A stretch of 64,000 nucleotides of DNA from Bacillota bacterium (GCA_012727955.1 JAAYGB010000005.1:41800-105799), one strand, 5' to 3'; positions 11,169 to 48,442 are shown, counted from the stretch's first letter. Notes: generated from the sequence alone by a model not told the origin. Program-made: numbers and translations.

Positions 11169-11202
11169 TTTCGGTTTTGTCAGTCGAGGGGGTAGTAATC
11201 CG

Positions 11203-15300: not shown

Positions 15301-15313
15301 GGGAGGTTACGGA

Positions 15314-17326
15314 TTGGAGAGGGCACGGGACTTTAGTCGACATAGGGTTTTTGTTTTCTCATTGATGCTCTGGCTCGGATTGATGGGAGCTGTGCTTTGG
15401 CAGTGGCCCGTGGCGGCAGCCGCCGTCGAAACCCAGAGTAGTGATGCCCGGTTCATGTCTGTTGGGCAACTAAGGGAAGGAATGAAGGGGGTTGCCAAGA
15501 CCGTTTTCCACGGAACCACCATTGAAGAATTTGATGTTGAGATCTTAAGCGTTCTTCCCGATGCGGGGGCTGGTGGCGACCTGATCCTCGGGAAGGTCAG
15601 CGATGAAGTAATTGAGCGAGCCGGTGGGGTTGTGCAGGGAATGAGCGGCAGTCCCGTATATGTTGATGGCAAACTGATTGGTGCCATCAGCGGTGCCTAC
15701 CGCAATAACCCCGATGGTTTGGCAGCCATTACCCCCATTGAAGATATGCTGCAGGTGCTGGACAGAGTCCAAGGCACGGAACCAATAGCGCTCAATCCCA
15801 GTACCATGGTAGCAGCGAAGACACCGCTGATGGCTTCGGGACTAAGTTCTCGGGCCCTCAATGTATTGGCGGAACAGACGGGTTCCTGGGGGATGTATCC
15901 CGTTGAAGGCGGGCAGATGGGTTCCGGCAAGGCAATTAATACCGAGGATGTGGAAATCGAGCCTGGAGCAGCCCTGGGATTACAGTGGGTTCGGGGTGAC
16001 GTCAATCTCACCTCCATTGGAACGGTGACCTATGTGGACGGCGATAATTTTGTCGCCTTTGGTCACACCGCGGGTAACTGGGGCAAGATCAATGCCTTCG
16101 CTTCCACTGCCTATGTCAATGCCATTGTCCGCAGTCGGGATATCGGATTTAAGCTGGCCTCTCCTATTGAGACGGTGGGCACCGTCTCCGAAGATCGGTG
16201 GGCAGGAATTGCCGGTACCATCGGGCAACTGCCTCCTGTAGTCCACTATGATGTTCGGGTGCGGGATAAAGACAGCGGCACTGAGTCCAACTATCAGTTT
16301 GATGTGGTTCGCAGTGAGCAGTTTACCAGCCAGTTCAGTTCCTCGGCCTTGCTGGGAGTCCTTGACCGGGGAATCGACCGCTTGGGTCCCGGCACCTCAA
16401 GGGTAGTGTATCGAGTCTATACCGATGATCTCGAGCCCATCATCCGTGATAATGTTTATTACAGCACCATTGATATTTCTGCAGTCTCTTTGAGTGAGCT
16501 GCTGGAAGTAACGCAGTTGCTACTGCGCAATGAGTTTAAGGCCGTCGATATCGAAAGGGTGGAACTGGAGGTGGACATTGACTCCAGTCGCCAGACGGCC
16601 ACGATTGAAAAGGCAAGGCCCGCTAGAACCACCGTGGCTCCCGGAGAGTCTGTCAACGTTGAAGTGGTGATTCGGCCCTACCGAGGAGAGCGGGAAACTA
16701 AGATCATCCGTTTAGATATTCCCGAGAATGCTCAACCCAGCTCTGTGCATGTTTCCGTTCGAGGCGGTGGCTACGGATACTTGTTTACCGATTACAGCCC
16801 CTATCACGATGGGGCTGATGCAGGGGGAGAGAATAAGTCTGAGGATCCGTCGCCCCCCAGCAATGCCGAGAGCCTCGATAAGTTGATCAAGGAAGTATCC
16901 CAACGGCCTCGCCATCAGGATCTGGTCGTTGAGTTTGTTCCCTATGTGAACTCCAAGCATGGGACAGAAGACGACGAGGCGGTTCCCGTTTTTGGTGAGC
17001 CGGAGATCCAGTTTGAGGATTTTGAGGATCCATCCGGTGCAAGTGGTCCCTTTGGCACCAGGGGTCTGGTACCGGTTACTGAAGGACGGGAGTTTGGTGA
17101 GAAGACAGCAGAGGATTCGTCACCTGCCTCCCCTTGGAATGGTCAATATGCTGAGCCTGTGAGAAGCACCCTAGCTACTCAATACTACCTGGAGGGTGAG
17201 ACTGGATTTGAATTGACCATCGTGGCTCCCCCTCAGCCCAGGGACCAAGAAGGTGCTGTCAAGTCCGATGCTCCACTGGAGACCGTCGAGGCTGAACCAA
17301 TAGAAGTAGAAGTAGAGGCTGAGTAA
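15314..17326 (+). CDS. SpoIVB-like S55 serine peptidase with apparently circularly permuted catalytic domain plus large C-terminal extension and acidic tail
   Basis: TTG 15314 after an AAGGGAGG RBS and a signal peptide. Residues ~60-150 ('[14 protein letters not shown]...[32 protein letters not shown]...IEDML') match the C-terminal Ser-box lobe of B. subtilis SpoIVB. Residues ~240-320 ('[20 protein letters not shown]...[17 protein letters not shown]') match the N-terminal His-box lobe. ~350 further aa of unknown fold end in a D/E-rich tail. Confidence 0.7.
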   Translation: [670 protein letters not shown]

Positions 17327-31795: not shown

Positions 31796-31938
31796 CCACC
31801 AAGGGGAGCAAAATTGCCCAAGAGGAACTGACTGGGGCTGCATGGAAGTTGATGTAATGCAAGTGGAAATACAATCGGTGGAGGGAAAGGCGGTCCCCCA
31901 TGCAGCAGGATAGATTCCAGAGAAACCTTGAAAAATCT

Positions 31939-34179
31939 ATGATCACGATTGTTATCCTTTTCTTAGCGGTAACCATCTTGACGGCTGTCAGCTTTGCCCA
32001 GGAGAAGATCTCTTTGCAGGCGGAAGGGCAGCTGGTTTTCGATATTACAACGGGAAACGTATACGCCGAAGAGGGTGTAGAGCTAGAGTATCAAGACCTA
32101 GTGTTACTGGCTGACAGTGCTCGCTACGACAGTGAGAACAGGATGGCTTATCTGGTGGGCAATGTTGAGCTTATTGAACCGGATCGGGTGGTCAGGGGAC
32201 AGGCCTTGACCTATGACTTTACTTCACAGGTCAGCTATATGGACGATGTGAGAACGGAAGTCACCGGCACAGGAATGCAGGGTCTAGCCTATCTGACGGG
32301 GCAAAGGGTGACCAACACCTCACAGGTGATGCATATCGATAACGGTACCATCACTACCTGTGATCTCGAGGATCCCCATTATCATTTGGCCAGCAAGTCC
32401 ATCGATATTTATCCCGGGGATCGCATCGTAGTTCGCCATGTGGTCTACTATGAGGGCAAGATTCCTTTGTTTTATTGGCCTTATTTGGTGATCCCAATCA
32501 GAAAGACCGCCGCAGGTACCAGTGTATTCGAGTTTCCCCGGGTAGGGCGGAATGAGTCCGATGGCTGGTATGTCAAGACGGCCTATAACTACTACCGCGG
32601 TCCCGAAGCCTATGGTAAGGTGCATCTGGATTGGTTTCAGAAAAAGGGGATTGGAAAAGGAGTGGATCACACCTACCAAGACGATGAGCAGGGGTACGGT
32701 GAAATTTCTTTGTATCATCTAGGAGGTAGTGATTGGGGTCAGTCCATCACCGCGGGTTGGACTCAGCAACTGCAACTGGGTCAAGCCTGGGAGTTTGCCA
32801 GCGATGTGGAGTATGTCACCCGGAACTTGACTGCAGGAGACTCCTCGGATTTTCTTGCCAATCTCGCTCTGTCTCGGCAGGCAGCGGACTCCCGGTTGAG
32901 TGCCACCTTAGATTATGAAGGGAATGCCTTTGCCGATGACACGGGAGAGTCGGACCTGTTGGGGCGGGTCAGTTATTCTCGTTCCTTCGGTCAGGGGTTA
33001 GGGGTTCGCCTGGGGGCGGACCTGCGTCGACTGGGGGAATACACCGATGGGGCCAGTGAAATAGAGCAATATGAAGGCTACTTGGGTGAAATCACCTTGA
33101 CCCAACCCCGGTACCAAGTGGGTGTTGCCCTGGAGCAGAAACTTAATCCAGAATTTCTGCGTTCGGAGATCGGCAGTGTCAAATGGGTCACCGCCAAGGA
33201 TGCTCCCCGCCTATTCTGGAGAAGCCGCAATTGGCGCTGGTTTAACGGTTACCTGCCAATGCTCTTTACCGGATCCTATAGCCGCTACTCTGAAGTGTAT
33301 CCCAACGGGTCGACCCAGGCCGGGCAGGTGGCAACGGTTACCGGGGGAATCAACAACAAGGTGTGGAATCTCAACCCGCAAACCCGGGTCACCTTAAGCA
33401 GCACTTTGCAGCAGGATTGGTACAGGGATCTCAGCAAGGAAAGCCCGGTTGGAGGGATACCGGCGGTAGAGACCCAAGGGGACCTGTCCCGCCTAAGCCT
33501 CCGATCCCGAAGTTCCCTGCGGTACAAGCCCTCCGAGCCCTGGACCCTGACCTTAGGTTATACCGATGATTGGGTGATCGCGGGGGAGACTCCCTTTGTG
33601 CGGGATCAGATCGACAACAAGGAGCTGCTTACCGGCAGAGTCCAATACCAGCAAAAGGCCGTTGCCGCTTCCCTGTCTACGGGATATGATTTTTATGCTG
33701 GGAAATATGAAGATGTCGTTGGTCAACTGGGGTATCGGCCCAGTGACAAGCTCCAGTTGGATCTGCAGGCCAATTACGATGTGCAATTGGGGGAAGTTAC
33801 CAATCTCTACACTTTAGCCAAGGCAGCCCCCTTGACGGGGTGGCAGGTGCAGTTTGGATCTGGCTACGATCTGCTAGAGGAGCGGTGGGAACGTCTGGAT
33901 GCTGCCACTACCGCCCAGCTGCCCTGGGGTTTGACCCTGCAGCACTTGATTAGCTACGATGGGGCCACGGATTCCTTAACCTACAACGACATTGCCTTGA
34001 CCAAGGATCTGCATTGTCGGGAACTGACCCTGCGGTACAGCGCGGTTCGGGAGGAGATTTGGCTGGAGTTTAGCCTTAATGCCTTCCCACGGACCAAGCT
34101 GTTGGCCGGGACCGCAGAGGACAAATTACTCTTCGATGCCCAGGGCATCGAAGAATTGGTGGATGTCATCACTGATTAG
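31939..34179 (+). CDS. lptD: LPS assembly outer-membrane protein LptD (OstA)
   Basis: ATG 31939; signal peptide; N-terminal OstA-like domain ('VYAEEGVELEYQDLVLLADSARYD...AYLVGNVEL'); 'TTCDLEDPHYHLASKSIDIYPGDRIVVRHVVYYEGKIPLFYWPYLVIPI' is a conserved LptD block; large C-terminal beta-barrel. Confidence 0.85.
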   Translation: MITIVILFLAVTILTAVSFAQEKISLQAEGQLVFDITTGNVYAEEGVELEYQDLVLLADSARYDSENRMAYLVGNVELIEPDRVVRGQALTYDFTSQVSYMDDVRTEVTGTGMQGLAYLTGQRVTNTSQVMHIDNGTITTCDLEDPHYHLASKSIDIYPGDRIVVRHVVYYEGKIPLFYWPYLVIPIRKTAAGTSVFEFPRVGRNESDGWYVKTAYNYYRGPEAYGKVHLDWFQKKGIGKGVDHTYQDDEQGYGEISLYHLGGSDWGQSITAGWTQQLQLGQAWEFASDVEYVTRNLTAGDSSDFLANLALSRQAADSRLSATLDYEGNAFADDTGESDLLGRVSYSRSFGQGLGVRLGADLRRLGEYTDGASEIEQYEGYLGEITLTQPRYQVGVALEQKLNPEFLRSEIGSVKWVTAKDAPRLFWRSRNWRWFNGYLPMLFTGSYSRYSEVYPNGSTQAGQVATVTGGINNKVWNLNPQTRVTLSSTLQQDWYRDLSKESPVGGIPAVETQGDLSRLSLRSRSSLRYKPSEPWTLTLGYTDDWVIAGETPFVRDQIDNKELLTGRVQYQQKAVAASLSTGYDFYAGKYEDVVGQLGYRPSDKLQLDLQANYDVQLGEVTNLYTLAKAAPLTGWQVQFGSGYDLLEERWERLDAATTAQLPWGLTLQHLISYDGATDSLTYNDIALTKDLHCRELTLRYSAVREEIWLEFSLNAFPRTKLLAGTAEDKLLFDAQGIEELVDVITD

Positions 34180-35852: not shown

Positions 35853-37979
35853 ATGATGACACTGTTTCGTGACGGTTTTGGCCGAGATCTGGTGGTCTTA
35901 ATGATCGTTAGTATCGTGGCGGGAACAATTCTGTCTACCGGAATTGCTAAGGCCGTTGATGCCTATTTTGGCGATACCATCAATGGTTTGATCGGTGATT
36001 TCGGTGAATATGATCTTATTCTACACATTAGAGAAGATGCCAAGGAAGCGGCGATGACAGAGCTGAAGGCCTTGGCAGAGAATCGACTACCGGGAATGAA
36101 GATGAGTGACGGAGTGACTATTGCGGGTAAGGTCAATGTCTTTATCGCTATCCCGGAGGAAGAGAAAACGAAAGAGACCTTAGAGAACCTGGACAATATT
36201 TTCGGAGACATCCCAGGTCAGTCAGGGTTTACCCTGATGATAGAGCCAACGGTCGTCGTGCAAGGCACCCACTCCGCGGTCAGGGGAAGATTGATTGAGG
36301 AGATCGAGGCGGTACCGGGAGTGAGCTTTGTCTTTCGGGATGGAGGCAGTTTGTATGCTGTTCTAGAGTCTGTGGACAAGTCTACTGAAGTAAATGAAGC
36401 GGTCAAGAACATCTTGCAGCAGTATCAACTACTAGAGATTAGTTTTCCCATGGGACAGGAGACAGAGGATGTGGCTTCCACCGGTGCGGTGGTAATTGCG
36501 GAGCTGGAGAATAGGTATGCTCCCAGTCTAATCGAAAACATCACCCTGTCGCAGGATACCGAGAACTATCAAGCCTTTGTGAAGACCTTGGCAGAGATGA
36601 AGCTGTTTCTGGAAAACTACGCGACTAAGGTGACCATCCCCATCGAGGGTCTGGAGCCGCTGAATGTCGGCAATCGGGTAGTGGTCCTCACCGCCGAGGA
36701 TAATCTGGCGGAGGGAGAACCCGTTGGGGAAGAACAGCTGGTGATCGAGGTTACCTCTATTACCGGTAGCGAGGCCAAGGGCTTGATTATCCAGGGTGAT
36801 ATCAGTGACGTTGAGGGCCAAGGGGAGCTAAATGGTTACCGGGTGCGAGCCGGTAAGGTAGGTTCCCGGGTCGGGTCTGTGATCTTGGAGAATGATCGCT
36901 ATCGACTAATTCGAGCCATTGACGAAAGTATCGCCCTGTTGACCCAGCTGGACAGTCTGTCCGGTACGGCCGATGAGGCGGTGGAGAACGCGCAGGAGAC
37001 CCTGGAGCTCTTCCAGGAATCGCTGGTGAAGCTGGAAGAATTGCAGACCCAGATTGAGGAGTTGAATCGAAGCCTCAATGGTGGTCCCGATGCCGGCGCG
37101 GGTAATGTGGTTCTGTCGATGCTGATCAGCCAGGTGATGCGGGGCCTAGTGGGAGATAAGTCCGAGGAAAGTGCCGGTAATCTCCAGGATCTCGATATTG
37201 CAGCGATGCAGGAGACTTTGGCTGCTCTAGCGGGACAATTGAAAAACGTTGAAACCGTGGATGTGCAGCTGATTATTGATCAGATTCAACAGGTCAAGGA
37301 GTCCTTGCCTCAGCTGCGGGACGAAGAGATTGGCCAGTCGATTCAGCTGATCAACAGCTATATCCAGGGACAAGTGATTCCCGGAGAAAAGATTCAGCTG
37401 TTGCTGGATGGCGACTCGGTATCGGCCGAGGAGGCTCAAGGGGTGATTCGGGAGGTTCTGGACAACCAGTACCTGTCGGTATACTCCTCGCCGGTGGGGA
37501 TTGTTAACCCCAACGCAAGAGCTGAGCTATTTCGAGTGTTGAGCGAAGTGAGGGCAACTATCGCCGGGATGTTGGCGATATTCTTTACCCTTCTCTTCTT
37601 GATTTTGGACTACTCGACGGTGATGAGTGTGATGAAGCAGCTAGAGTCGAGAATCACCAGTCGGTCACTGTGGAAGCGAGTATTTAGTCCCGTTAAATTC
37701 ATCGGAGTTGCCCTGGGGGCAATCCTGTTATTTACCATTTATCTGGCCAGCCGAGCGCAGATTCCCTATGTAGCTCCTTGGCATATGCTGATCCTCGGTG
37801 GTATCTTGGGGGGCTTGGCTGCTATTTTGTGCGACCGATTCAGCCCCGTCAATGAGGATGAAATGATGGCCGGTGAGGCCCTGGGATTGACCTACGTTCA
37901 GATCATGCGTAATATCGTTATTCCAGAGAGTCGTCCCGGTTTGCTCAATCTGCTAAATGGCTGGAAGAAGACCTTCTAA
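35853..37979 (+). CDS. FtsX/MacB-type (type VII) ABC permease with very large (~530 aa) periplasmic coiled-coil domain
   Basis: 708 aa. Topology is TM1 (res 13-33), a huge extracytoplasmic alpha/beta + coiled-coil region, then 3 TM at the C-terminus (FtsX-like 1+3 arrangement). Immediately followed by an FtsE-type ATPase. Confidence 0.6.
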   Translation: MMTLFRDGFGRDLVVLMIVSIVAGTILSTGIAKAVDAYFGDTINGLIGDFGEYDLILHIREDAKEAAMTELKALAENRLPGMKMSDGVTIAGKVNVFIAIPEEEKTKETLENLDNIFGDIPGQSGFTLMIEPTVVVQGTHSAVRGRLIEEIEAVPGVSFVFRDGGSLYAVLESVDKSTEVNEAVKNILQQYQLLEISFPMGQETEDVASTGAVVIAELENRYAPSLIENITLSQDTENYQAFVKTLAEMKLFLENYATKVTIPIEGLEPLNVGNRVVVLTAEDNLAEGEPVGEEQLVIEVTSITGSEAKGLIIQGDISDVEGQGELNGYRVRAGKVGSRVGSVILENDRYRLIRAIDESIALLTQLDSLSGTADEAVENAQETLELFQESLVKLEELQTQIEELNRSLNGGPDAGAGNVVLSMLISQVMRGLVGDKSEESAGNLQDLDIAAMQETLAALAGQLKNVETVDVQLIIDQIQQVKESLPQLRDEEIGQSIQLINSYIQGQVIPGEKIQLLLDGDSVSAEEAQGVIREVLDNQYLSVYSSPVGIVNPNARAELFRVLSEVRATIAGMLAIFFTLLFLILDYSTVMSVMKQLESRITSRSLWKRVFSPVKFIGVALGAILLFTIYLASRAQIPYVAPWHMLILGGILGGLAAILCDRFSPVNEDEMMAGEALGLTYVQIMRNIVIPESRPGLLNLLNGWKKTF

Positions 37980-38016
37980 GGGAGCTTATGCGGGATTTTG
38001 GGATGGAGGTGAAGCA

Positions 38017-38745
38017 GTGATCGAAATCTATGATCTGAAGAAAACCTACGGCAAGACAGTAGCCCTTGATGGGATGAGTCTCAAAGTTCGCAAGGGCGAA
38101 ACAGTGGTGATTATGGGTCCCAGCGGGTGCGGAAAGTCCACGTCTATCCGTTGTATCAATCGGTTGACGGAGCCTGATTCCGGGAAAATCCTTTTCAACG
38201 GCCAGTCGATTTTGGATATGAGCCACAGAGAGCTCTTGGCCTATCGCCAACAGGTGGGCTTTGTGTTTCAGAAGTTCAACCTGATCAATCGGATGACGGT
38301 GAAGGAGAATGTGATGTTGGCACCGGTACTAAATGGACTCAACCGCAGTGAGGCTGAGTCCTTGGCAGAGCGGGCCTTGGCCAGAGTAGGGCTGAGTTCC
38401 GCTGCCCATAAGCGTCCCCATGAGATGTCCGGTGGAGAGCAACAACGGGTTGGAATTGCCAGAGCCTTGGTTAACAACCCCCAGCTGGTTCTCTGGGATG
38501 AGCCCACTGCTTCATTGGATCCGATTTTGGTGCGAGAAGTTCTAGAAGTGATGGAGGACTTGGTGAACACCACTCAAACTACGTCAATCATCGTGACCCA
38601 CGAAGTGGACTTTGCTTTGCGGGTGGCAGACCGGATTGTACTCATGGATGGCGGCCGGGTAGTTGAGGAGGGTTCACCGGAAACGATATTCGTGGATCCG
38701 AAGTCGGAGATTGGAGATAAATACAAGAAACTGATTGCAGCTTAG
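38017..38745 (+). CDS. FtsE/LolD/MacB-type ABC transporter ATP-binding protein
   Basis: GTG 38017 after a GGAGGTGAAG RBS; Walker A 'GPSGCGKST'; signature 'MSGGEQQRVGIARALVNNPQLVLWDEPTASLDP' (the SGGEQQRV + NNP form typical of the FtsE/LolD family); 242 aa without C-terminal regulatory domain. Confidence 0.85.
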   Translation: MIEIYDLKKTYGKTVALDGMSLKVRKGETVVIMGPSGCGKSTSIRCINRLTEPDSGKILFNGQSILDMSHRELLAYRQQVGFVFQKFNLINRMTVKENVMLAPVLNGLNRSEAESLAERALARVGLSSAAHKRPHEMSGGEQQRVGIARALVNNPQLVLWDEPTASLDPILVREVLEVMEDLVNTTQTTSIIVTHEVDFALRVADRIVLMDGGRVVEEGSPETIFVDPKSEIGDKYKKLIAA

Positions 38746-38749
38746 TCGC

Positions 38750-38776
38750 GGCCAGGGAGTGATCCCTGGCTTTTTT
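38750..38776 (+). terminator. rho-independent terminator
   Basis: stem gccaggga/tccctggc, loop gtga, T6. Confidence 0.85.
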
Positions 38777-38896: not shown

Positions 38897-39730
38897 TTGC
38901 AGTCACAACGGACGCTGGCGAAATCCATCAGTTATGAAGGCCTTGGGCTTCATACTGGACGAACTATTCGGATGTCAATTCACCCGGCATCTCCCGACTC
39001 TGGCGTGGTGTTTCGGCGGGTAGATTTGCCCGAGAGGCTCGAAATTCCGGCTAGGCTGGAGAACGTAGTTGATACCAGGTTGAACACTACTTTGGGTATT
39101 GGTACCGTCAAGGTTATGACGGTGGAACATCTTCTGGCTAGTCTGTCAGGGATGGGCGTCGACAACGCTATTGTCGAGTTAGATGGCGGTGAAGTTCCCG
39201 TCGGGGATGGCAGCGCCGAGTTGTTTTGTCGCTTGATCCAAGAGGCGGGAGTCGTCGATCAGCCACAGGCTCGAGTCTATCGGGGTTTATCATCGCCGGT
39301 CAGTGTCTCCGACAAGGGCCGGTATATGGTTGCCTTACCTGCCGATGAGTTCAGGATATCCTTTACCTTTGTTACCGATCATCCCGTAATCGGTACCCAG
39401 TACGCCGATTATGCAATTACCGAGGAGGTATTTCGGGAGCAGCTGGCTGCGGCCCGAACCTTTGCCTTTGCTCATCAAGTCGAAGAGATGCGGCGACAGG
39501 GAAGGGCTCTGGGGGGAAGTTTGGATCTGGCTGTGGTGGTGGGGGACGAAGGATACGTGAACGAACTGAGATTCCCCGACGAGATTGTCCGGCATAAGAT
39601 TCTGGATATTGTGGGTGACCTGGCTTTGCTGGGGCCGATGAAGATGCATATCATTGCCATCAAGTCCGGTCATCAGCTGGATGCCTGGTTGGCACAGCGA
39701 ATTTCCGAAGTAGCAGTTGGATGGAATTGA
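38897..39730 (+). CDS. lpxC: UDP-3-O-acyl-N-acetylglucosamine deacetylase LpxC
   Basis: 277 aa; 'QRTLAKSISYEGLGLHTGRTIRMSIHPASPDSGVVFRRVDL' and 'TVEHLLASLSGMGVDNAIVELDGGEVPVGDGSA' are canonical LpxC blocks; HKxLD-like 'VRHKILDIVGDL'. Confidence 0.92.
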   Translation: MQSQRTLAKSISYEGLGLHTGRTIRMSIHPASPDSGVVFRRVDLPERLEIPARLENVVDTRLNTTLGIGTVKVMTVEHLLASLSGMGVDNAIVELDGGEVPVGDGSAELFCRLIQEAGVVDQPQARVYRGLSSPVSVSDKGRYMVALPADEFRISFTFVTDHPVIGTQYADYAITEEVFREQLAAARTFAFAHQVEEMRRQGRALGGSLDLAVVVGDEGYVNELRFPDEIVRHKILDIVGDLALLGPMKMHIIAIKSGHQLDAWLAQRISEVAVGWN

Positions 39731-39819
39731 CAGGAATAGAGGAGGCGACCTTGTCTCAATAATGTATGTGAGGGATGTTTTTCCTCAGAGTACAAATATT
39801 TACTAAGGAGGTCAACTCT

Positions 39820-40803
39820 TTGCGCGCAATTCTGCCTTTAGCCGGGATCGGTAGCCGATTGCGACCTCATACCCACACCCTACCTAAATCCTTGGTACCG
39901 GTAGCGGGCAAACCTATCTTGGGACATATTCTCGACCGGTTGATTCCCGTTGGAGTAAGTGAAGTGGTCTTGATCGTCGGTCAGATGGGTGACATGATCG
40001 TAGACTACGTCAGTGAGAACTATAATTTTGTCGTCCGCGTGGTCAATCAGGAGGAGAGACGGGGTCTTGGTCATGCCGTCTACCTATCTCGAGAACATGT
40101 CGACCCGGCGGAGCCGGTGCTGATTGTTTTGGGCGACACCATCGTCGAAGCTGATTTGGCAGCGGTGGTCAGAAGTCCCCACAGCGTCTTGGGGGTACGG
40201 GAGGTGGACAATCCCCAAAGTTTCGGCGTTGTCTCTTTGGAAGGAGATCGTATCGCTGACCTGGTGGAGAAGCCAGCCAACCCGCCGTCGAACCTAGCAG
40301 TGGTGGGGGTCTATTACATCAAGAACACTGCTCTGTTGCTTAATTGTCTGGAATACATAATCGATCAGGGAATTACCTTGAAGGGCGAATTTCAGCTCAC
40401 CGATGCCCTGCGCCGGATGATTAAACTGGGCGAACCCATGGGTGTTTTCCCAGTGGAAAGCTGGTTTGACTGTGGTAATCCCGAGAGCCTGTTGGCCACC
40501 AATCGATATCTCTTGGACCGGGATGGAGCCGTTAGTGCTCCCCTGCAAAATACGGTGGTAATTCCCCCAGTACATATTGCCAGAACTGCTAGGGTAGCCA
40601 ACAGTGTCGTCGGCCCCTATGTGTCGGTAGCTGATCATGCCGTGGTGGAGAACTGCCTGATCAGGGACAGCATCCTCAACGAAGGCGCAGTTGTGCGGGA
40701 CATTACCTTAGATGGGTCTTTAATCGGACATAACGCTGTCGTCACTGGTCGGTACACTAAGCTGAATATCGGGGACTCTTCGGAGATCATTTCCGGTTCC
40801 TAG
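39820..40803 (+). CDS. sugar-1-phosphate nucleotidyltransferase with C-terminal hexapeptide (LbH) domain
   Basis: TTG 39820 after an AAGGAGGT RBS; 'AILPLAGIGSRLRPHTHTLPKSLVPVAGKPIL' is the NTP_transferase G-rich loop; 'LVEKP' motif; C-terminal hexapeptide repeats. Confidence 0.75.
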   Translation: MRAILPLAGIGSRLRPHTHTLPKSLVPVAGKPILGHILDRLIPVGVSEVVLIVGQMGDMIVDYVSENYNFVVRVVNQEERRGLGHAVYLSREHVDPAEPVLIVLGDTIVEADLAAVVRSPHSVLGVREVDNPQSFGVVSLEGDRIADLVEKPANPPSNLAVVGVYYIKNTALLLNCLEYIIDQGITLKGEFQLTDALRRMIKLGEPMGVFPVESWFDCGNPESLLATNRYLLDRDGAVSAPLQNTVVIPPVHIARTARVANSVVGPYVSVADHAVVENCLIRDSILNEGAVVRDITLDGSLIGHNAVVTGRYTKLNIGDSSEIISGS

Positions 40804-40872
40804 GGGGCAGAGTCCGGGAAACCGACGAGAAAAAACAGGATGGGATGGCAGTTGTTATTCCCATCCATTAGC

Positions 40873-40901
40873 TTGACACGTCTACGGGCGCAGGGTACAA
40901 T
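40873..40901 (+). promoter_or_regulatory. consensus sigma-70/sigma-A promoter (TTGACA-17-TACAAT) upstream of fabZ-lpxA
   Basis: ttgaca 40873-40878, 17-nt spacer, tacaat 40896-40901; fabZ ATG at 40966. Confidence 0.6.
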
Positions 40902-40965
40902 GGTAGCAGCCTTGCTTCCAGGTACTAATTTGTGCCCGAACAAATTGGTAAAGGAAGATTTTCAT

Positions 40966-41409
40966 ATGTTAGATATTCTTGAAATCCAAAACAGAATTCC
41001 CCATCGCTTTCCCTTTTTGATGGTGGATCGAGTCCTGGAGTTGGAGCCAGGTATTCGGGCAGTTGGATTGAAGAACTTGACCATCAACGAGCAATTCTTC
41101 TCTGGTCATTATCCCCAGCGCCCTATTATGCCAGGGGTTCTGATGCTTGAGGCTATGGCTCAAGTCGGGGGATTGGCGGTGATCAAGGATGGAGTGGCCA
41201 GCGGTCAGGTTCCTTTGTTAACCGGGATCGACAAAGCTCGCTTTCGGCGAGTCGTGGTTCCCGGCGACCAACTTCGCATTGAAGTTGAAGTCACTCAGTT
41301 GCGCAGGTCCTTGGCCAAGTGCAAGGGCTATTGTTATGTAGAAGATGAGCTGGCTGCCGAAGCGGATTTGATGTTTGTGGTGGCCCCTGCCGACAAGGTC
41401 GGACAGTAA
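40966..41409 (+). CDS. fabZ: 3-hydroxyacyl-ACP dehydratase FabZ
   Basis: ATG 40966 (RBS aaaggaag); 'MLDILEIQNRIPHRFPFLMVDRVLELEPG...FFSGHYPQRPIMPGVLMLEAMAQVGG' is the hot-dog FabZ signature. Confidence 0.92.
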   Translation: MLDILEIQNRIPHRFPFLMVDRVLELEPGIRAVGLKNLTINEQFFSGHYPQRPIMPGVLMLEAMAQVGGLAVIKDGVASGQVPLLTGIDKARFRRVVVPGDQLRIEVEVTQLRRSLAKCKGYCYVEDELAAEADLMFVVAPADKVGQ

Positions 41410-41476: not shown

Positions 41477-42295
41477 ATGAGCACAAAGGAAAAGCCGGGA
41501 AATAATGTCATCCCTTTGCGTCAGAAGATACACGAGACTGCGATTGTTCATCCCAATGCAGTGATTGGTTCCGGCGTTACTATCGGTCCCTATTCGATTA
41601 TTGGTGAAAATGTAGAGATCGGTGACGGGACAGAGATCGGAGCCCACGTGGTTATAGAGGGATGGACGACGATTGGTAAGAATAATAAAATTTATACCGG
41701 TGCAATTATAGGAAATGAGCCCCAGGATCTGAAGTTCAAAGGGGAAAAAAGCTATCTCTTCATTGGAGATAACAACATCATTCGGGAGTATGCTACCATC
41801 AGCCGAGGTACCGAAGGTGGTGGAGGCGAAACTCGAATTGGCAACAGTTGCTTGATCATGTCTTACGTTCACGTGGCCCATGATTGTCAGATCGGGAATA
41901 ATGTCATCATTGCTCATGGCACTGGAATAGCCGGCCACGTTACCGTTGAGGACAGTGCTGTTTTTGGTGGGTTAGTTGGAGTCCATCAGTTCACCAAAGT
42001 CGGGCGGATGGCGATGATCGGCGCCCATACCATGGTAACCAAAGATGTGCCTCCATACCTTCTCGTCGATGGAAATCCCGCTAAAGCCTACGGTATCAAT
42101 ATAGTTGGCTTGAGACGCAATGGATTAAGTCCCGAGGTTAGAGCCGAAATTAAGCGCGCCTATAAGATTTTGTACCGTTCTAATTTGACTATATCCGAGG
42201 CCATCGAACAAATGGAGCAGGAGTTGGCCGGTTCTCCAGAAATCGATCATTTCCTCCGCTTCTTGAGATCCGTGGATCGTGGTATTTGTCGTTAG
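41477..42295 (+). CDS. lpxA: acyl-ACP--UDP-N-acetylglucosamine O-acyltransferase LpxA
   Basis: ATG 41477 (RBS ggaagggga); 'IHETAIVHPNAVIGSGVTIGPYSIIGENVEIGDGTEIGAHVVI' hexapeptide repeats with LpxA-type C-terminal helical domain 'GLRRNGLSPEVRAEIKRAYKILYRS'. Confidence 0.9.
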   Translation: MSTKEKPGNNVIPLRQKIHETAIVHPNAVIGSGVTIGPYSIIGENVEIGDGTEIGAHVVIEGWTTIGKNNKIYTGAIIGNEPQDLKFKGEKSYLFIGDNNIIREYATISRGTEGGGGETRIGNSCLIMSYVHVAHDCQIGNNVIIAHGTGIAGHVTVEDSAVFGGLVGVHQFTKVGRMAMIGAHTMVTKDVPPYLLVDGNPAKAYGINIVGLRRNGLSPEVRAEIKRAYKILYRSNLTISEAIEQMEQELAGSPEIDHFLRFLRSVDRGICR

Positions 42296-42313
42296 GATAA
42301 GGTAGGAGATCTT

Positions 42314-42928
42314 ATGACCCAGTCAAAAAGCGTGTTCCTAAGGGCAAAGGAGTGCGCCTCCCTGTCGTTGCCTGAAACGCTGTACAAGATCCGGGGGATC
42401 CTGCCTTTGCCTCTACTGTTACTCAGCATCCTGTGGTCTCGTCCGAATCCCCAGTCCTTGACCTGGGGTTTGGTCCTGGTTGCAGGGGGAGAACTAGTTC
42501 GCCTCTGGGTAGCGGGGTTTCTCGGTGGACAGCCAATAGAGCAACGGGACGGGTTGCCCTTAGTGGAGCATGGTCCCTATAGTTTGATGCGGCATCCCCG
42601 CCAGATTGGGAATTTCCTCATTGGGATGGGATTAAGTGTCGCTGCAAACTGGTGGATCGGATACCTGCTCTATTTCGGCTATTGCCTCCTTGTGATTCGG
42701 GTATTGATTCCCGTGGAAGAGGATGTCTTGGTGGCCAGCTATGGTGATGAGTATCGCCAATATTGTGCTAGGGTACATCGCTTTCGTCCGAAGGTTAGCA
42801 AGGCCATCCTTAGCCGAGAGGGTTTTGCCGGGAAAGATGCCTTTGCCAGCGAGCGGTCGATGCTGTTCTTCATCGCTGCTATTGGGGCATGTTTTGCTGC
42901 AAAATGTTTGTTTCTGGTAACGGGATAG
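42314..42928 (+). CDS. integral-membrane SAM-dependent methyltransferase of the ICMT/PEMT family
   Basis: 204 aa; 4-5 TM; 'GPYSLMRHPRQIGNF' (G-x-Y-xxx-RHP-x-Y-x-G-like) and the C-terminal 'EEDVLVASYGDEYRQYCARVHRFRP' (EE..L...FG.EY..Y...V.R) motifs; nested between lpxA and lpxI. Confidence 0.6.
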   Translation: MTQSKSVFLRAKECASLSLPETLYKIRGILPLPLLLLSILWSRPNPQSLTWGLVLVAGGELVRLWVAGFLGGQPIEQRDGLPLVEHGPYSLMRHPRQIGNFLIGMGLSVAANWWIGYLLYFGYCLLVIRVLIPVEEDVLVASYGDEYRQYCARVHRFRPKVSKAILSREGFAGKDAFASERSMLFFIAAIGACFAAKCLFLVTG

Positions 42929-42948
42929 GTTGTCCTTTGCCGGTATGG

Positions 42949-42975
42949 GCCACTGGTTTCCAGTGGCTTTTTCTT
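42949..42975 (+). terminator. rho-independent terminator
   Basis: stem gccactgg/ccagtggc then ttttt. Confidence 0.7.
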
Positions 42976-43012
42976 TACCAATCTTCGCTTAGGTGGGACA
43001 GGGGGAAGTGAA

Positions 43013-43840
43013 ATGAAAATAGGTTTGCTGGCCGGTGAAGGGTTACTACCCTTTGCCTTTGCCGAGAATGCGAAAGCTATGGGGCACAGTGTGGTGGCGA
43101 TTCAGATCTTTGCTGCCAGGCCGGAACTTGCCTCCCACGTGGACAAGTTGCTGCAGATCCCGGTGGGGCAGTGGGGAAAGATTCTCAGTACCCTGCAGCA
43201 AGAGGCTGTTGATCGGGTGTATATGGTAGGGAAGGTTCCCAAGGGTCTGATGTACACCTCCATGGAATTTGATGCTCGTTTTCGGCAAATCATGGGGTCC
43301 CTGGCAGCCCGCAACGACGACGCTGTGGTGTTGGCCTTTATCGCGGACTTGGCTGCCCATGGACTTGAGGTTGGCTCCCAACTGGATATTCTGGAACCCT
43401 TGTTGGTTCGTCCTGGCGTCTTAACCGACCAGGCCCCTACTCCAGAGCAGTGGCAGGACATTGGATTTGGTTTTCCCATGGCTAAGGGCATCGGGCGCCT
43501 GGACATTGGACAGACGGTGGTGGTCAAGCATGCCGCGGTGGTGGCCGCTGAAGCCGTGGAGGGAACCGATGAGGCCATCCTGCGGGGAGGAGCTCTGGCC
43601 GGCCCCGGTACAGTAGTGGTGAAAGTGGCCAAACCCCATCAGGATCTTCGCTTTGATATCCCTACGGTGGGGGAGAGAACCCTGCAGTATATGGTTCGGG
43701 CCCAAGCCTCGGTACTGGCGGTGGAGGCCGGTGCCGTATTGATTGTTGAGGAGCCGCAGTTTGTTCGCCAGGCCAACGAACTAGGTATCGCCATCGTAGG
43801 CGTTTCCGATCAGGATGGGCAGGCAGGTGCTGACCAATGA
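43013..43840 (+). CDS. lpxI: UDP-2,3-diacylglucosamine hydrolase LpxI (DUF1009)
   Basis: 275 aa; N-term 'MKIGLLAGEGLLPFAFAENAKAMGHSVVAIQIF' and C-term 'DIGQTVVVKHAAVVAAEAVEGTDEAILRG...VVVKVAKPHQDLRFDIPTVGERT' match the LpxI family; overlaps lpxB start by 4 nt. Confidence 0.82.
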   Translation: MKIGLLAGEGLLPFAFAENAKAMGHSVVAIQIFAARPELASHVDKLLQIPVGQWGKILSTLQQEAVDRVYMVGKVPKGLMYTSMEFDARFRQIMGSLAARNDDAVVLAFIADLAAHGLEVGSQLDILEPLLVRPGVLTDQAPTPEQWQDIGFGFPMAKGIGRLDIGQTVVVKHAAVVAAEAVEGTDEAILRGGALAGPGTVVVKVAKPHQDLRFDIPTVGERTLQYMVRAQASVLAVEAGAVLIVEEPQFVRQANELGIAIVGVSDQDGQAGADQ

Positions 43841-44991
43841 AGGGCTACAAGGTGATGATCGTTGCGGGAGAAGCCTCGGGAGATCTCCACGGTTCCTACT
43901 TGGTCCAGAGCCTGAGGCGGCAAAATCCCGATATCCAGTTCTTCGGGATGGGTGGTCGCTTGATGCAAGAGGCCGGCGTTGAGCTGCTCTTTGATCCCAC
44001 CCAAATGTCCACCATTGGATTTGTGGAGGCGCTGAAAAGTTATCGGGTGCTAAAACGGGTTTTGTCCCGGCTGCGGGATGCCTTAGTGGAACGACGGCCC
44101 GATGTCCTAGTACTCATCGATTTTGGCGGCTTCAACATGCGCCTGGGTCCCATGGCCAAGGCAGCTAACATTCCTGTGGTCTACTACATTAGCCCAGCGG
44201 CATGGGCCTATGCCGAAGGCCGGGCCAAGAAGGTAGCCGCCTTTGCCGACAAAGTGGTGTCCATCTTTCCCTTTGAGTACGATGTATACAAGAAGGCTGG
44301 GGCCAACGTGGAGTTCGTCGGCCATCCCCTGTTGGATATCGTGCAGGTGGATGGCAGTAAAGCTGAGCTTTGCTCCCGACTGGACCTAGATCCGGAAAAT
44401 CCCATTATTGGACTTTTGCCGGGAAGCAGAGAGCAGGAGCTAAAGTCACTGTTTCCCAAGATGCTGGCTGCTGCCAGACTCATTGCCCAGGAGATTGCCG
44501 ATGTCCAATTCGTGGTTCCCCTGGCGTCCACGGTGTCTGACGTGGCGGCAGCCATCCTCGATGACTTGGATGCAAGGGATCTGAACCTAAGGATAGTGAC
44601 CGGTGAGGCCTATAGTGTGATGGCAGTCAGCGACTTGGCGGTGATCGCCTGCGGAACGGCTACCTTGGAGGCCGCGATCCTCGACACTCCCCAAGTGGCG
44701 ATTTACCAGGTGGCGCCGGTGACGGCCTTTATTGTACGGCGGGTGGTGCGCATCTCCCACTTTGCTCTGCCGAATATCATCATGGAGAAAGAGATTATTC
44801 CTGAGTTGATTCAGGAAGAGGTAACTACTGACAACATCGCTGGGACGGTACTGGAGCTGTGGAATCAGCCCGACCAAATAGCACAGATCCGTCGGGATTA
44901 TCAGGCGATGCGGACCAGACTGGGCAGTTCCGGAGCGGTGGACAGAGCTGCCGCTGCGGTACTACAGGCAGCCCGGCAAAGCTCACGGTAA
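43837..44991 (+). CDS. lpxB: lipid-A-disaccharide synthase LpxB
   Basis: 384 aa; 'KVMIVAGEASGDLHGSYLVQSL...IQFFGMGGRLMQEAGVELLFD' is the classical LpxB N-terminus; GT-B fold length. Confidence 0.92.
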   Translation: MKGYKVMIVAGEASGDLHGSYLVQSLRRQNPDIQFFGMGGRLMQEAGVELLFDPTQMSTIGFVEALKSYRVLKRVLSRLRDALVERRPDVLVLIDFGGFNMRLGPMAKAANIPVVYYISPAAWAYAEGRAKKVAAFADKVVSIFPFEYDVYKKAGANVEFVGHPLLDIVQVDGSKAELCSRLDLDPENPIIGLLPGSREQELKSLFPKMLAAARLIAQEIADVQFVVPLASTVSDVAAAILDDLDARDLNLRIVTGEAYSVMAVSDLAVIACGTATLEAAILDTPQVAIYQVAPVTAFIVRRVVRISHFALPNIIMEKEIIPELIQEEVTTDNIAGTVLELWNQPDQIAQIRRDYQAMRTRLGSSGAVDRAAAAVLQAARQSSR

Positions 44992-45117
44992 CTTGCTGCG
45001 AAGGACTGGTATGCCGGGATCTGGCTCTAGTGGTAGGGTTTGCGTAGAGGTATCCATGGGAAAATAGCGAATTTTGTTGTAGGGACAGGTATTCAGTTTG
45101 ATGAGGGAGAGTTTGTT

Positions 45118-45837
45118 TTGACCATCGTAGCCCAGGATCTGGTGAAGTCCTATCGCGGTCGAAGAGTTGTAGATCGAGTCTGTCTCGAGGTAGCTCGAGG
45201 TGAAGTAGTAGGCTTACTGGGGCCAAACGGGGCAGGGAAGACTACTACTTTTTACATGATCGTGGGATTAGAAAGGCCGGACTCTGGGAGCGTCCAGATC
45301 GACGGACAGGAGATTACCCCCTTACCGATGTATCGGCGCGCCCGGTTGGGAATTGGTTATCTGCCCCAGGAAGCATCGATTTTTCGCAAGTTGACGGTGA
45401 CGGAGAATATCTTAGCGATTTTAGAAGTTATGGGGTTGGATAAAAGACAACGACAGCAGCGCCTGGAGGAGCTGTTGGAGGAATTTGACCTGGGGCATGT
45501 CAGGAATCAGCAGGGCGTGATGTTGTCCGGGGGAGAGCGGCGTCGAGTGGAAATCGCTCGGGCTCTGGCAACAAACCCGGCTTTCATCCTGTTGGATGAA
45601 CCCTTCGCCGGGGTCGACCCCATCGCGGTGGCCGATATCCAGACGATAGTGGCTTACCTGAAGAAGCGGGGTTTGGGGGTATTGATCACCGATCATAACG
45701 TGAGAGAGACCCTGGCCATCACCGATCGAGCCTATATTATGCATCAGGGCAAGATCCTAGTTTCTGGCTCCGCCGAGGAAATCGCCACCAACGAGACTGC
45801 CCGCAAGTTTTACCTGGGAGAGCGGTTTAGCCTATGA
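45118..45837 (+). CDS. lptB: LPS export ABC transporter ATP-binding protein LptB
   Basis: TTG 45118 after a GGAG RBS (the longer ORF from 45040 is unlikely); Walker A 'GPNGAGKTT', '[15 protein letters not shown]', LptB-type C-terminal '[33 protein letters not shown]'. Confidence 0.85.
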
Positions 45838-46919
45838 GAATTCTAGATAAATATATAGCCAAGGAGACCATTTTGCCCGTCTTGTTTGGGATTGCCGCCT
45901 TCACCAGTATCTTCGTTGGCACCGAATTGATCGATATGGCTAAGTTGGTGGTCCGATATGGGGCACCGCTGAGTAAGGCGGTTTTGGTTTTCCTGTATAA
46001 TCTGCCGCAGATCTTTACCTACACCTTTCCGATGTCGGTACTTCTGGCAACGCTGTTGTCGATGAGTCGGCTGTCTTCTACCAGTGAGATTGTGGCAATG
46101 CAGGCCGGTGGCGTCAGCTTTCGGCGGATTATTGCACCGGTGTTGGTGGTGGCAGTAATCGTCACGGGAATGAGTTTTTTTATTAGTGAGAAGGTGGCCC
46201 CTAGGGCCAATGAACGCAGCGCCCTGTTGATGCTGGAGATTCGGGGTGGAAGTATCCCCACGGTGACCAGAAACGTTATTCTGCAGACGCACGAGCGGGG
46301 AATAATGAATTGGTTCCTGTATGCCGCCCGCTTTGACGCTAAGACTCAAATCATGCATGATGTGACGATTGTATCCCTAGACAACGGCAAGCCCGTTGAG
46401 AACACCTATGCGGAGCAGATTGTGTGGGATGAGACAGGATGGTATATGGAGAATGGAGTGACCAATCGCTTCAATGCCGATGGCCAGGTGGTGACGGTGA
46501 ACTTCGCTGGAGCCCGCCAGCCCGTGGATATCGGTCAGAAGCCGCAGGACATCGTTCGGGCCCAAAAGGACCCCGAAGAGATGAATATTCGGGAATTGTC
46601 GCAGCATATCAATATCCTAGCCAGTCAAGGCCGCAATGTCCGCGAGTTGCAGGTGAAGTGGCACTCGAAGTTAGCCATGCCCTTTGCTAGCCTGATCTTT
46701 GCTTTGGTGGGAGCTCCTTTGGGAATTCAGCCCCATAGATCGGCGACCTCCATTGGATTTGGGCTGTCAATTGTAGTTATTTTTATCTATTACGTGATTA
46801 TGACGGCGGGAGAGGCTCTAGCCCAAGGGGGATATCTGCCCCCGGTTGTCGGTGGTTGGATCGCCAATATTTTCTTTGTTGTTCTGGGATTGGGGTTGTT
46901 GTTTCGTTCTTCTCGGTGA
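45834..46919 (+). CDS. lptG: LPS export ABC permease LptF/LptG family (YjgP/YjgQ)
   Basis: 361 aa; '[27 protein letters not shown]' is a typical LptF/G start; 3+3 TM with a periplasmic domain; translationally coupled to lptB. Confidence 0.82.
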
Positions 46920-46948: not shown

Positions 46949-48442
46949 GTGGTGACCGCGGTGTATGGACTTGGGTTAATTCTCACACTGGTGTTGTCCG
47001 GTGGAGTGATTGCCTATATCGGTGACAAGATTGGAATGAAGATCGGTCGCAAGCGGCTTAGCCTCTTTGGCCTTCGCCCCAAGTATACATCCATCGTGAT
47101 TACCATTGTCACCGGGATCCTGATTGCCGCGGCGTCCCTGGCAGTGCTGACCATTGCTTCTGCCGATGTGCGAACCGCCCTATTTCACATGAAGGAGATT
47201 CAAACGGCCCTAGCAACCAGTGAAGTCCGCTTTAATGCCAGCCAACAACGGCTCTTTGAAGTGGAACAGGAGCTAGCTGCCCAGGAAGCCCAAGTGCAGT
47301 CCTTGGCTGAGGAGATTCAACGGAAAACCCTCGAGTATGAGGAGCTAAGCCACCAGCTGCTAGAGGTGGTTGAGCAGAGAGATGCCGCCAAGGTGGAACT
47401 GGAGTCCGCACAGGCGGAAGCTGCGGAAATGGAACGGCAGTTTGCCGACTTACAAGCGGACTATGAGAATATGATGACAAACTTTGAATTGATCAAAACG
47501 GAGTATCAAGAGATGAATGCCGCCTACACCGCCATCGCACAGCAATACGAAACTGCCTTGGCCCAGTACAATCAAGCCCGGTCGGATTTGGCTGCCACAG
47601 AAGAGGAGCTAGAGGAGACCCGCAGGTCCTTGGCACTGGAGAAACAGCGGCTAGAGGATATGAAGGAGATCAATCAGCTGTTCCAAGCCAAGATCGACGA
47701 ACTGAGACAGACTGAAGAGGAAATGAAGACCCATATGCAGGCCCTGACCCAGGAGTACAATCTGATGGTCAGCCTGCAGAACGAGCTGATTCAAGAAAAA
47801 CAGACTGAGCTGGAACTGATTAAATCCAGTAATTTTGTCTTTCAGGCCAATGAGATTATTCTGGCCACGGTGATGGAAGGAAGCCGAGATATAGAGGATA
47901 TGCGGCAGGAGATTATTACCTTCCTAAACCAGGCTAATCAGATTGCCCTAAGGCGTGGGGTGATGGATAAGGCTACCTCGAGGGCTGCCCTTGTGATTGA
48001 AAATGAGCATCTCCAGGAAGTATTGCATTATCTGGAACGGGCTGAGGGCAAACACGTGATTCGCGCCCTGGCTGCCAGCAACACGCTACCCGGTGAGCCC
48101 GTGGAGGTTCGGCTGGTCTATCTGCCTAATACTCTGATCTATAAGAAGGGCGAGATTATTCTCAGTCGTGAGATCGACTTGTCGGCACCGGGAGTGAATG
48201 TGGAAGATGAAATCGCGGCAATGCTCAGCCGGATCAACGATATTGGGATTTCCCGGGGAATGATCACCTATGCCGATGGTACCCTGGGTACCGCCCTTAC
48301 CGGCGATGAGTTCATGGCTACACTCCGGCAGATGCGCCAGCACGATAGTATGATTGAGGTGCAGGCAGTAGCCCGCCATGATATTTGGAATGCCGTAGGT
48401 CCCCTCAGCATCGATTTGAAGGTGGTGCCCTTAGACTCATAG
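46949..48442 (+). CDS. DUF3084-like membrane-anchored long coiled-coil protein
   Basis: 497 aa; N-term 'GDKIGMKIGRKRLSLFGLRPKYTSIVITIVTGILIAAASLAVL' resembles the DUF3084 N-terminal block; ~250 aa of Q/E-rich coiled coil; C-terminal alpha/beta domain. Confidence 0.45.
   Translation: MVTAVYGLGLILTLVLSGGVIAYIGDKIGMKIGRKRLSLFGLRPKYTSIVITIVTGILIAAASLAVLTIASADVRTALFHMKEIQTALATSEVRFNASQQRLFEVEQELAAQEAQVQSLAEEIQRKTLEYEELSHQLLEVVEQRDAAKVELESAQAEAAEMERQFADLQADYENMMTNFELIKTEYQEMNAAYTAIAQQYETALAQYNQARSDLAATEEELEETRRSLALEKQRLEDMKEINQLFQAKIDELRQTEEEMKTHMQALTQEYNLMVSLQNELIQEKQTELELIKSSNFVFQANEIILATVMEGSRDIEDMRQEIITFLNQANQIALRRGVMDKATSRAALVIENEHLQEVLHYLERAEGKHVIRALAASNTLPGEPVEVRLVYLPNTLIYKKGEIILSREIDLSAPGVNVEDEIAAMLSRINDIGISRGMITYADGTLGTALTGDEFMATLRQMRQHDSMIEVQAVARHDIWNAVGPLSIDLKVVPLDS

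Follow-up and report, generated by a model that had tools for sequence, protein, structure and literature searches.

A membrane methyltransferase gene of an LmtA-like subfamily lies within the lipid A gene cluster of a diderm Bacillota bacterium

The window, a 64,000-nucleotide stretch of DNA from a Bacillota bacterium (GCA_012727955.1 JAAYGB010000005.1:41800-105799), encodes at 42314..42928 (+) an integral-membrane methyltransferase of 204 aa, which belongs to the ICMT/PEMT superfamily and within it to an LmtA-like, lpx-linked subfamily. A functional link of this protein to lipid A synthesis is strongly supported by genomic comparisons. The protein would be a SAM-dependent methyltransferase that modifies a lipid A intermediate within the Raetz pathway, most likely by O-methylation of the 1-phosphate as LmtA does, a reading to which we give about an even chance of being correct.

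Results

The methyltransferase gene is located between lpxA and lpxI

The ORF was found exactly where the earlier note had placed it. Its ATG is preceded at a distance of 5 nt by an AGGAG Shine-Dalgarno sequence (42304..42308, +), and 18 nt separate it from the lpxA stop codon (42293-42295); in relatives lpxA and the methyltransferase gene overlap or are 7 nt apart. It is not a chance ORF, since three orthologs show 59-92% identity to it and two of them, on well-assembled contigs, share its position.

Neighbouring genes, all on the + strand, were assigned with Pfam and NCBIfam. They are lpxC (38897-39730), a gene for a GlmU/RmlA-like sugar-1-phosphate nucleotidyltransferase (39775-40803), fabZ (about 40966-41409), lpxA (UDP-GlcNAc O-acyltransferase, 41477..42295, its start set at Met35 of the listed ORF from 272-aa orthologs), then after the methyltransferase gene lpxI (UDP-2,3-diacylglucosamine hydrolase, 43013..43840), lpxB (lipid A disaccharide synthase, 43837..44991) and, directly after lpxB, lptB and lptF/G (45040..46919). 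The first three genes (38897..41409) share the orientation of the methyltransferase gene and make up the 5' part of its gene string. The placement fabZ-lpxA-[MTase]-lpxI-lpxB, read earlier from the DNA alone, and the longer order from lpxC to lptF/G are thus both borne out.

A terminator-like hairpin (42947..42979, +), with a 10-bp stem containing 6 G-C pairs and followed by TTTCTTT, is located just 3' of the methyltransferase stop codon. It is absent in relatives, where lpxI starts 5-113 nt after the methyltransferase gene (5-6 nt in L001 and L002). A second terminator-like hairpin with a T-tract was observed at 38750-38771, and the two possibly bracket a predicted lpxC-nucleotidyltransferase-fabZ-lpxA-methyltransferase transcription unit. 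A strong promoter-like site (TTGACA, 17-nt spacer, TACAAT) is present at 40873-40901, just before the likely fabZ start. No Rfam RNA family was detected within the window. The nucleotidyltransferase has a left-handed beta-helix tail and resembles GlmU and the long RmlA type while scoring below all equivalog cutoffs. Every relative in the window clade has its gene at this place, between lpxC and fabZ, and the enzyme may supply a UDP-sugar for lipid A.

The host carries an outer-membrane gene cluster typical of diderm Bacillota

The host is a Limnochordia-like, two-membraned (diderm) member of the Bacillota. The closest relatives of the methyltransferase were found on a low-coverage ENA contig (92% identity), in a Limnochordia MAG (62%) and on a Logan contig (59%). 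A profile search of genome contigs with the four-sequence alignment A1, whose patterns were over-specific, returned the known Limnochordia MAG and one Actinomycetota homolog outside the subfamily.

The remainder of the window is an outer-membrane gene cluster typical of diderm Bacillota, which also encodes TamB, BamA, a Skp-like protein, LpxD, LptF/G, LptD-like and LptA-like proteins, an SLH protein and a porin-like protein; a likely LptC gene adjoins the LptA-like gene. The lipid A synthesis and transport set thereby comprises lpxD, lpxC, lpxA, lpxI, lpxB, lptB, two lptF/G genes and the LptA-like and LptD-like genes. The ORFs scanned across the 64 kb included no lpxK, waaA, msbA or kds genes; these may lie in another part of the genome, or else the organism may make an unusual lipid A.

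Several other genes of the window were annotated in passing. The 759-aa protein encoded at 31900-34179 gave only a marginal LptD_N match (20.9 bits) and probably represents a diderm Bacillota LptD that has diverged strongly. A 708-aa protein (35853-37979) gave no Pfam match; a single hydrophobic segment at the N-terminus and a hydrophobic C-terminal region flank a long acidic stretch that is probably a coiled coil. An ABC ATPase gene (37957-38745) begins within the gene for this protein, and the pair, which is kept just upstream of lpxC in L001 (72% identity), L002, L006 and L093, may represent a MacB/FtsX-type transporter of the outer-membrane cluster. A 497-aa DUF3084 protein with a coiled-coil-like region (46949-48442) follows lptF/G in the window as in L001 and L002. 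Finally, the window encodes the flagellar P-ring protein FlgI and a SpoIVB-like S55 peptidase (11056-12438 and 15275-17326), so that a Gram-negative-type flagellar ring is paired with a sporulation-type protease beside outer-membrane genes.

Domain assignment, motifs and predicted structure of the methyltransferase

The earlier note had proposed an HMM assignment to PF04191 or PF04140, and the outcome differs between the two. The protein matched the Pfam PEMT model PF04191 with 36.2 bits (gathering threshold 25, E 8.6e-09), residues 52-145 aligning to profile positions 6-104 of 105, and narrowly missed the ICMT model PF04140 (22.9 bits vs a threshold of 24); a precomputed PF04140 match is carried by the ortholog P0002. 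All three NCBIfam models compared gave scores far under their cutoffs: NF040696 (protein-S-isoprenylcysteine O-methyltransferase) 39.3 bits vs 160, TIGR04571 (LmtA, an exception-type model for Leptospira) 34.8 bits vs 325, and NF045656 (MddA) 20.8 bits vs 270.

The hydropathy profile and the AlphaFold model (pLDDT 87.4, pTM 0.82) agree on five transmembrane helices, the approximate number suggested previously. Helices were modelled at residues 31-41, 46-70, 95-111, 114-143 and 173-203. N-terminal amphipathic helices (7-25), in a segment where basic residues cluster, are followed by TM1-TM2 (31-70), a cytoplasmic loop with GPYSLMRHPRQIGN at residues 87-100, TM3-TM4 (95-143), an EE...YGDEYRQY...VHRFRP block (135-159) and a C-terminal extension that includes an invariant E180 and the fifth helix (173-203). 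According to the positive-inside rule and the order of the helices, the 72-98 loop and the 135-180 block are predicted on the cytoplasmic side.

In a profile comparison with the PDB, residues 75-161 matched the C-terminal half, which binds SAM, of the ICMT structures 4A2N and 5V7P (8.5e-08). The same two entries were the best PDB matches of the AlphaFold model in Foldseek (probability 1.00); their global scores were weak (E about 8e-3, TM 0.37-0.46), as the well-aligned part is limited to about 120-145 residues.

RHPxY ... EE is the tripartite motif of the ICMT/Ste14 superfamily, known from Ste14 mutagenesis. The motifs quoted for this ORF in the earlier note were found in part: E135 and E136 and the V..R..P residues are present, while the FG.EY element reads YGDEY and the RHPxYxG element reads RHPRQIG. 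R93-H94-P95 is thus intact and Gln97 occupies the Tyr position. This Tyr is present in 15/17 unselected subfamily members and in both solved ICMTs; it is also retained in the L001 and L002 orthologs. The motif reads QHPRY in the ortholog P0002 and RHPRY in P0003. The window clade furthermore lacks the subfamily residues R75 and Y128, and P0008 has an RRPDA motif together with E136D. The window copy is on this comparison a divergent subfamily member, and its catalytic competence, with Gln in place of the RHPxY Tyr, is not certain.

The protein belongs to an LmtA-like subfamily

A HMMER profile of four orthologs was compared exhaustively with 1.84 billion representative proteins. It yielded 10,923 matches at E<=1e-3, only 7 of them below 1e-30, and the top matches were ~190-aa proteins covering query positions 20-200, including the C-terminal helix. 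The subfamily was defined by the alignments A2 (17 sequences) and A4 (86 sequences), and its named members come from Calditrichota, KSB1, Vulcanimicrobiota/Eremiobacterota, Poribacteria, Armatimonadota, TA06, Marinimicrobia and Bacillota. Seven columns (R27, G59, R63, G87, P95, E135 and E180) are invariant across the 86 sequences. The window protein carries all seven, a partly circular result as it is itself a row of A2 and A4, and matches 21/28 columns that are >=85% conserved; conserved residues that it retains include R27, R63, G87, P88, R93, P95, G99, N100, E135, E136, Y150 and E180.

At E<=1e-8 the LmtA model was matched by 81/86 members (best 3.4e-25), the ICMT model by 53/86 and the MddA model by 2/86. 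Scanned individually, members scored 35-60 bits against LmtA, compared with a cutoff of 325. The LmtA profile runs through the C-terminal extension (window residues 85-198 to LmtA 90-203), whereas the ICMT profile stops at residue 161. For the window protein alone the ICMT model scored slightly above LmtA (39.3 vs 34.8 bits). On these profile scores LmtA is the closest named family, and the proteins form a separate LmtA-like subfamily and not an LmtA ortholog group. In a rough neighbour-joining tree, built without support values and without a bona fide LmtA sequence, the sequences grouped by genomic context.

The position of the gene is conserved in diderm Bacillota

The order lpxA-methyltransferase-lpxI is kept in L001, L002, L006/L007 (P0008, 35% identity) and L092 (P0004, 39%). 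In L093 (P0011, 33% identity) lpxA also precedes the methyltransferase gene, whose start overlaps the lpxA stop. Among diderm Bacillota the lpxA-methyltransferase pair therefore persists at identities as low as 33%, with lpxI next wherever the contig extends. Between the window and L001, pN was 0.25 for the methyltransferase gene, 0.23 for lpxI and 0.25 for lpxB; dN/dS could not be used as synonymous sites are saturated (pS 0.78), and pN alone was compared with that of neighbouring genes. Since its pN equals that of lpxI and lpxB, the methyltransferase is conserved like the enzymes encoded next to it, a sign of purifying selection. The scrambled C-terminus of P0001, the relative with 92% identity, could be taken for a sign of a pseudogene; this was rejected, as coverage is ~1x and every gene of that contig is fragmented, which points to assembly error.

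Subfamily genes often adjoin, and some are fused to, lipid A genes

Neighbouring genes were classified by BLAST against a labelled reference set at 80 metagenome loci (72 non-redundant). These loci were sampled through the motif RNPLY[LI]GN (alignment A3), which inflates conservation at positions 92-100. In the wider subfamily lpxB is the gene that most often adjoins the methyltransferase gene: it lies immediately downstream in 33/59 loci with enough flank, and a gene for a UDP-GlcNAc-3-dehydrogenase-like protein (gnnA-like) lies immediately upstream in 18/55. An LPS-pathway gene (lpxB, gnnA-like, lptFG, msbA or a UshA-like hydrolase gene) is adjacent in 45/65 loci with at least one side known and in 36/49 with both sides known; these adjacencies are inherited, and the 45 loci do not amount to 45 independent events. 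On a Marinimicrobia contig the order is gnnA-like - methyltransferase - lpxB - DUF374 - lpxK, the DUF374 gene being placed between lpxB and lpxK (L096:6650-7300). Further arrangements are lptFG-methyltransferase, msbA-methyltransferase and a gene for an LpxB paralog (LpxB-like A) followed by the methyltransferase gene and a gene for a UshA-like Metallophos protein. At least five distinct arrangements place the methyltransferase gene beside those of makers or users of lipid X, namely LpxI, UshA-like Metallophos proteins, LpxB and LpxB paralogs.

Fusion to an LpxB paralog was seen in at least three members: P0099 (615 aa), P0134/P0154 (461 and 619 aa) and the L013 ORF. Each fusion protein combines an LpxB-like domain with a complete methyltransferase domain in which the full motif set is retained.

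The subfamily is not exclusively lpx-linked, as two of its clades and the copies P0009 and P0208 have no LPS neighbours. In a Poribacteria MAG (L095:6647-7369) the member is followed by a gene for a soluble class I SAM methyltransferase, with no LPS genes, and this locus does not suit a lipid A link.

Three protein families recur around the subfamily genes. The first, LpxB-like A, comprises proteins of ~411-420 aa with 33-52% identity to one another and about 21-27% to canonical LpxB; they pass no NCBIfam cutoff. Their genes adjoin canonical lpxB and are adjacent to, or fused with, the LmtA-like methyltransferase gene (L005:7001-8848; L013:2716-4593; L006:9817-11079; L008:5665-6912; L009:1847-3082). 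The second, another LpxB paralog, has no Pfam match and scored 339 bits with TIGR03492 'lipid-A-disaccharide synthase-related protein' (L006:12935-14146; L009:4395-5573; L001:10692-11888; L002:11636-12829). The third is the UshA-like Metallophos protein of 245-249 aa, with a UDP-sugar hydrolase-type N-terminal domain, whose gene follows that of the methyltransferase (L009:3656-4405; L005:8848-9585; also L013, L016 and L040). In the clusters that contain it, no lpxI or other recognised gene for a lipid X-forming hydrolase was seen, and the protein may represent a further type of UDP-2,3-diacylglucosamine hydrolase.

In relatives, lpxB and the lptB-lptF/G genes are separated by additional genes. 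Downstream of lpxB, L006 contains genes for paralog A, an MsbA-like ABC transporter, the TIGR03492 paralog and a GT2 protein. L002 has the TIGR03492 gene and what is left of paralog A, joined to one half of an ABC gene (a 298-aa chimera of a paralog-A N-terminus and the ABC half, 10737-11633), and L001 has the TIGR03492 gene only. None of the four genes is present in the cluster of the window, and those of paralog A and TIGR03492 are absent throughout the 64 kb. Read in this order, L006, L002, L001 and the window are a stepwise loss series downstream of lpxB. The methyltransferase gene is kept in all four, which indicates a role independent of those four genes in this cluster. A dependence of the methyltransferase on partner genes was accordingly rejected, the window having neither LpxB paralog A nor TIGR03492 within 64 kb.

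Discussion

Proposed function and its alternatives

The earlier note had suggested that a lipid A or phospholipid head-group methylation step is built into LPS synthesis. The link to lipid A synthesis is strongly supported, on the evidence of the conserved lpxA-methyltransferase(-lpxI) order, of LPS-pathway neighbours at 45/65 loci and of the LpxB-paralog fusions; membership of LmtA proper is not, with 34.8 bits vs 325. Beyond this we infer an active enzyme with lipid A as its acceptor, a phosphate as the methylated group, and which of the intermediates it uses.

As the RHP loop and the EE block would face the cytoplasm, as in ICMT, action before MsbA-type flipping is expected. The SAM-using active site would be located at the cytoplasmic face of the inner membrane. 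Lipid X, the product of LpxI, is the first intermediate of the pathway to have a free 1-phosphate. This phosphate, carried on into the LpxB product, would most likely be the methylation target, and the enzyme could act on lipid X, on the disaccharide-1-phosphate or on a later intermediate of the cytoplasmic face. The recurrent place of the gene beside those of LpxI or the UshA-like hydrolase, and of LpxB, fits a 1-phosphate target. ICMT-superfamily enzymes methylate O, N or S acceptors, and membership therefore does not fix the chemistry; O-methylation of a phosphate, and the choice of that phosphate, are proposed by analogy with LmtA.

An active methyltransferase of LPS biogenesis could also use another acceptor: a carboxylate, such as that of Kdo or of a lipid A uronic acid (ICMT-type activity), the amine of a phosphoethanolamine substituent (PEMT-type activity), or a glycolipid resembling lipid A that the LpxB paralogs would make. 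The breadth of the superfamily, with weak ICMT, LmtA and MddA matches all seen here, agrees with this idea, as does the PEMT assignment in Pfam, and the fusion or adjacency to the uncharacterised LpxB-like paralog A, and often to TIGR03492, is suggestive as well. However, the methyltransferase gene is retained in the window cluster, which lacks paralog A, TIGR03492, the MsbA-like transporter and GT2; the commonest neighbours are canonical lpxB and genes of lipid X-forming hydrolases and not core or Kdo genes; and LmtA is the nearest named family for most members. We consider these other acceptors unlikely, for the carboxylate and the amine as for the glycolipid.

Catalysis may instead have been lost or weakened in the window clade, the protein serving as a membrane anchor or scaffold for peripheral LpxI and LpxB. 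Gln97, the divergent motif of P0008 and the loss of R75 and Y128 in the clade are compatible with such a role, which would also suit the fusion to an LpxB-like glycosyltransferase. It is nevertheless improbable to a marked degree, given that the window protein keeps three quarters of the well-conserved columns, that its L001 and L002 orthologs retain the Tyr, that the fused methyltransferase domains have complete motifs and that divergence is at the level of real pathway enzymes.

A phospholipid N-methyltransferase, or some other housekeeping membrane methyltransferase merely travelling with lpx genes, would account for the Pfam family name and for the members in unrelated neighbourhoods, but it is improbable, as the LPS adjacency in several independent arrangements and the LpxB-paralog fusions go far beyond hitch-hiking. 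The gene has also stayed in place across deep divergence, and in relatives it is translationally coupled to lpxA.

Significance of the lipid A 1-phosphate reading

If methylation of the lipid A 1-phosphate is the function, lipid A would leave the cytoplasmic face with one charge already capped, and in some lineages the methyltransferase responsible would be fused to an LpxB paralog. Lipid A phosphates set outer-membrane charge, divalent cation binding, resistance to cationic peptides and recognition by TLR4/MD-2. Diderm Bacillota and several candidate phyla would then have charge-capping built into core lipid A synthesis, and genome-based predictions of lipid A structure would change. The gene would provide a new marker for the outer-membrane cluster of diderm Firmicutes, and many proteins labelled 'isoprenylcysteine carboxyl methyltransferase family protein' would gain a testable function. 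The linked LpxB paralogs and the UshA-like hydrolase hint at more undescribed variants of the Raetz pathway.

A broader proposal, which we put forward tentatively and hold to be somewhat less probable than its opposite, is that lipid A phosphate methylation is widespread and possibly ancient, hard-wired into the lipid A operons of many mostly uncultured lineages through an LmtA-like family working with LpxB. With the same reserve, these lineages would be the Limnochordia-like diderm Bacillota and Marinimicrobia, whose contexts were seen, and possibly KSB1, Calditrichota, Eremiobacterota/Vulcanimicrobiota, Armatimonadota and TA06.

Comparison with known systems

In the open-access literature we found no description of an ICMT/Ste14-like gene in lpx operons or of LpxB paralogs linked to one, although a prior description is possible, and nothing relevant on lipid A methyl phosphate outside Leptospira. 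Within the literature that could be reached, a methylated lipid A phosphate is described only in Leptospira (PMC10248169). According to Boon Hinckley et al. 2005, as cited in PMC4402001, LmtA of Leptospira interrogans methylates the lipid A 1-phosphate. Leptospira also has two lpxB genes, lpxB1 and lpxB2 (PMC4758666).

Among the families compared, the methanethiol S-methyltransferase MddA belongs to the same superfamily and gave a weak match of 20.8 bits; the window protein is far under the MddA cutoff of 270, and hardly any subfamily member matches that model at E<=1e-8. PEMT (PF04191) is the sole curated model that the window protein passes, but its context gives no sign of phospholipid head-group methylation. 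The PF04191 family is broad, and many of its bacterial members are uncharacterised.

With ICMT/Ste14 (4A2N, 5V7P) the protein has in common the catalytic C-terminal half (G-P-Y..RHP, EE, G.EY..Y). It differs in the number of N-terminal helices and in the extra C-terminal helix with the invariant E180, and it stays under both curated cutoffs (22.9 of 24 and 39.3 of 160). To our knowledge, prenylated-protein substrates are not expected in this bacterium.

The closest comparison is with LmtA, for which TIGR04571 is the model (lipid A Kdo2 1-phosphate O-methyltransferase). The subfamily spans only about positions 53-200 of this 252-position profile and is thus shorter at both ends, and the window protein has Gln for the motif Tyr and is encoded in a core lpx operon. 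Like LmtA, it is an integral-membrane, SAM-type methyltransferase of the Ste14/ICMT fold tied to lipid A, and it is the LmtA profile, not that of ICMT, which covers the C-terminal extension of the subfamily. The lipid A backbone of Leptospira is a diamino-sugar, and the gnnA-like gene that adjoins many subfamily members matches this feature.
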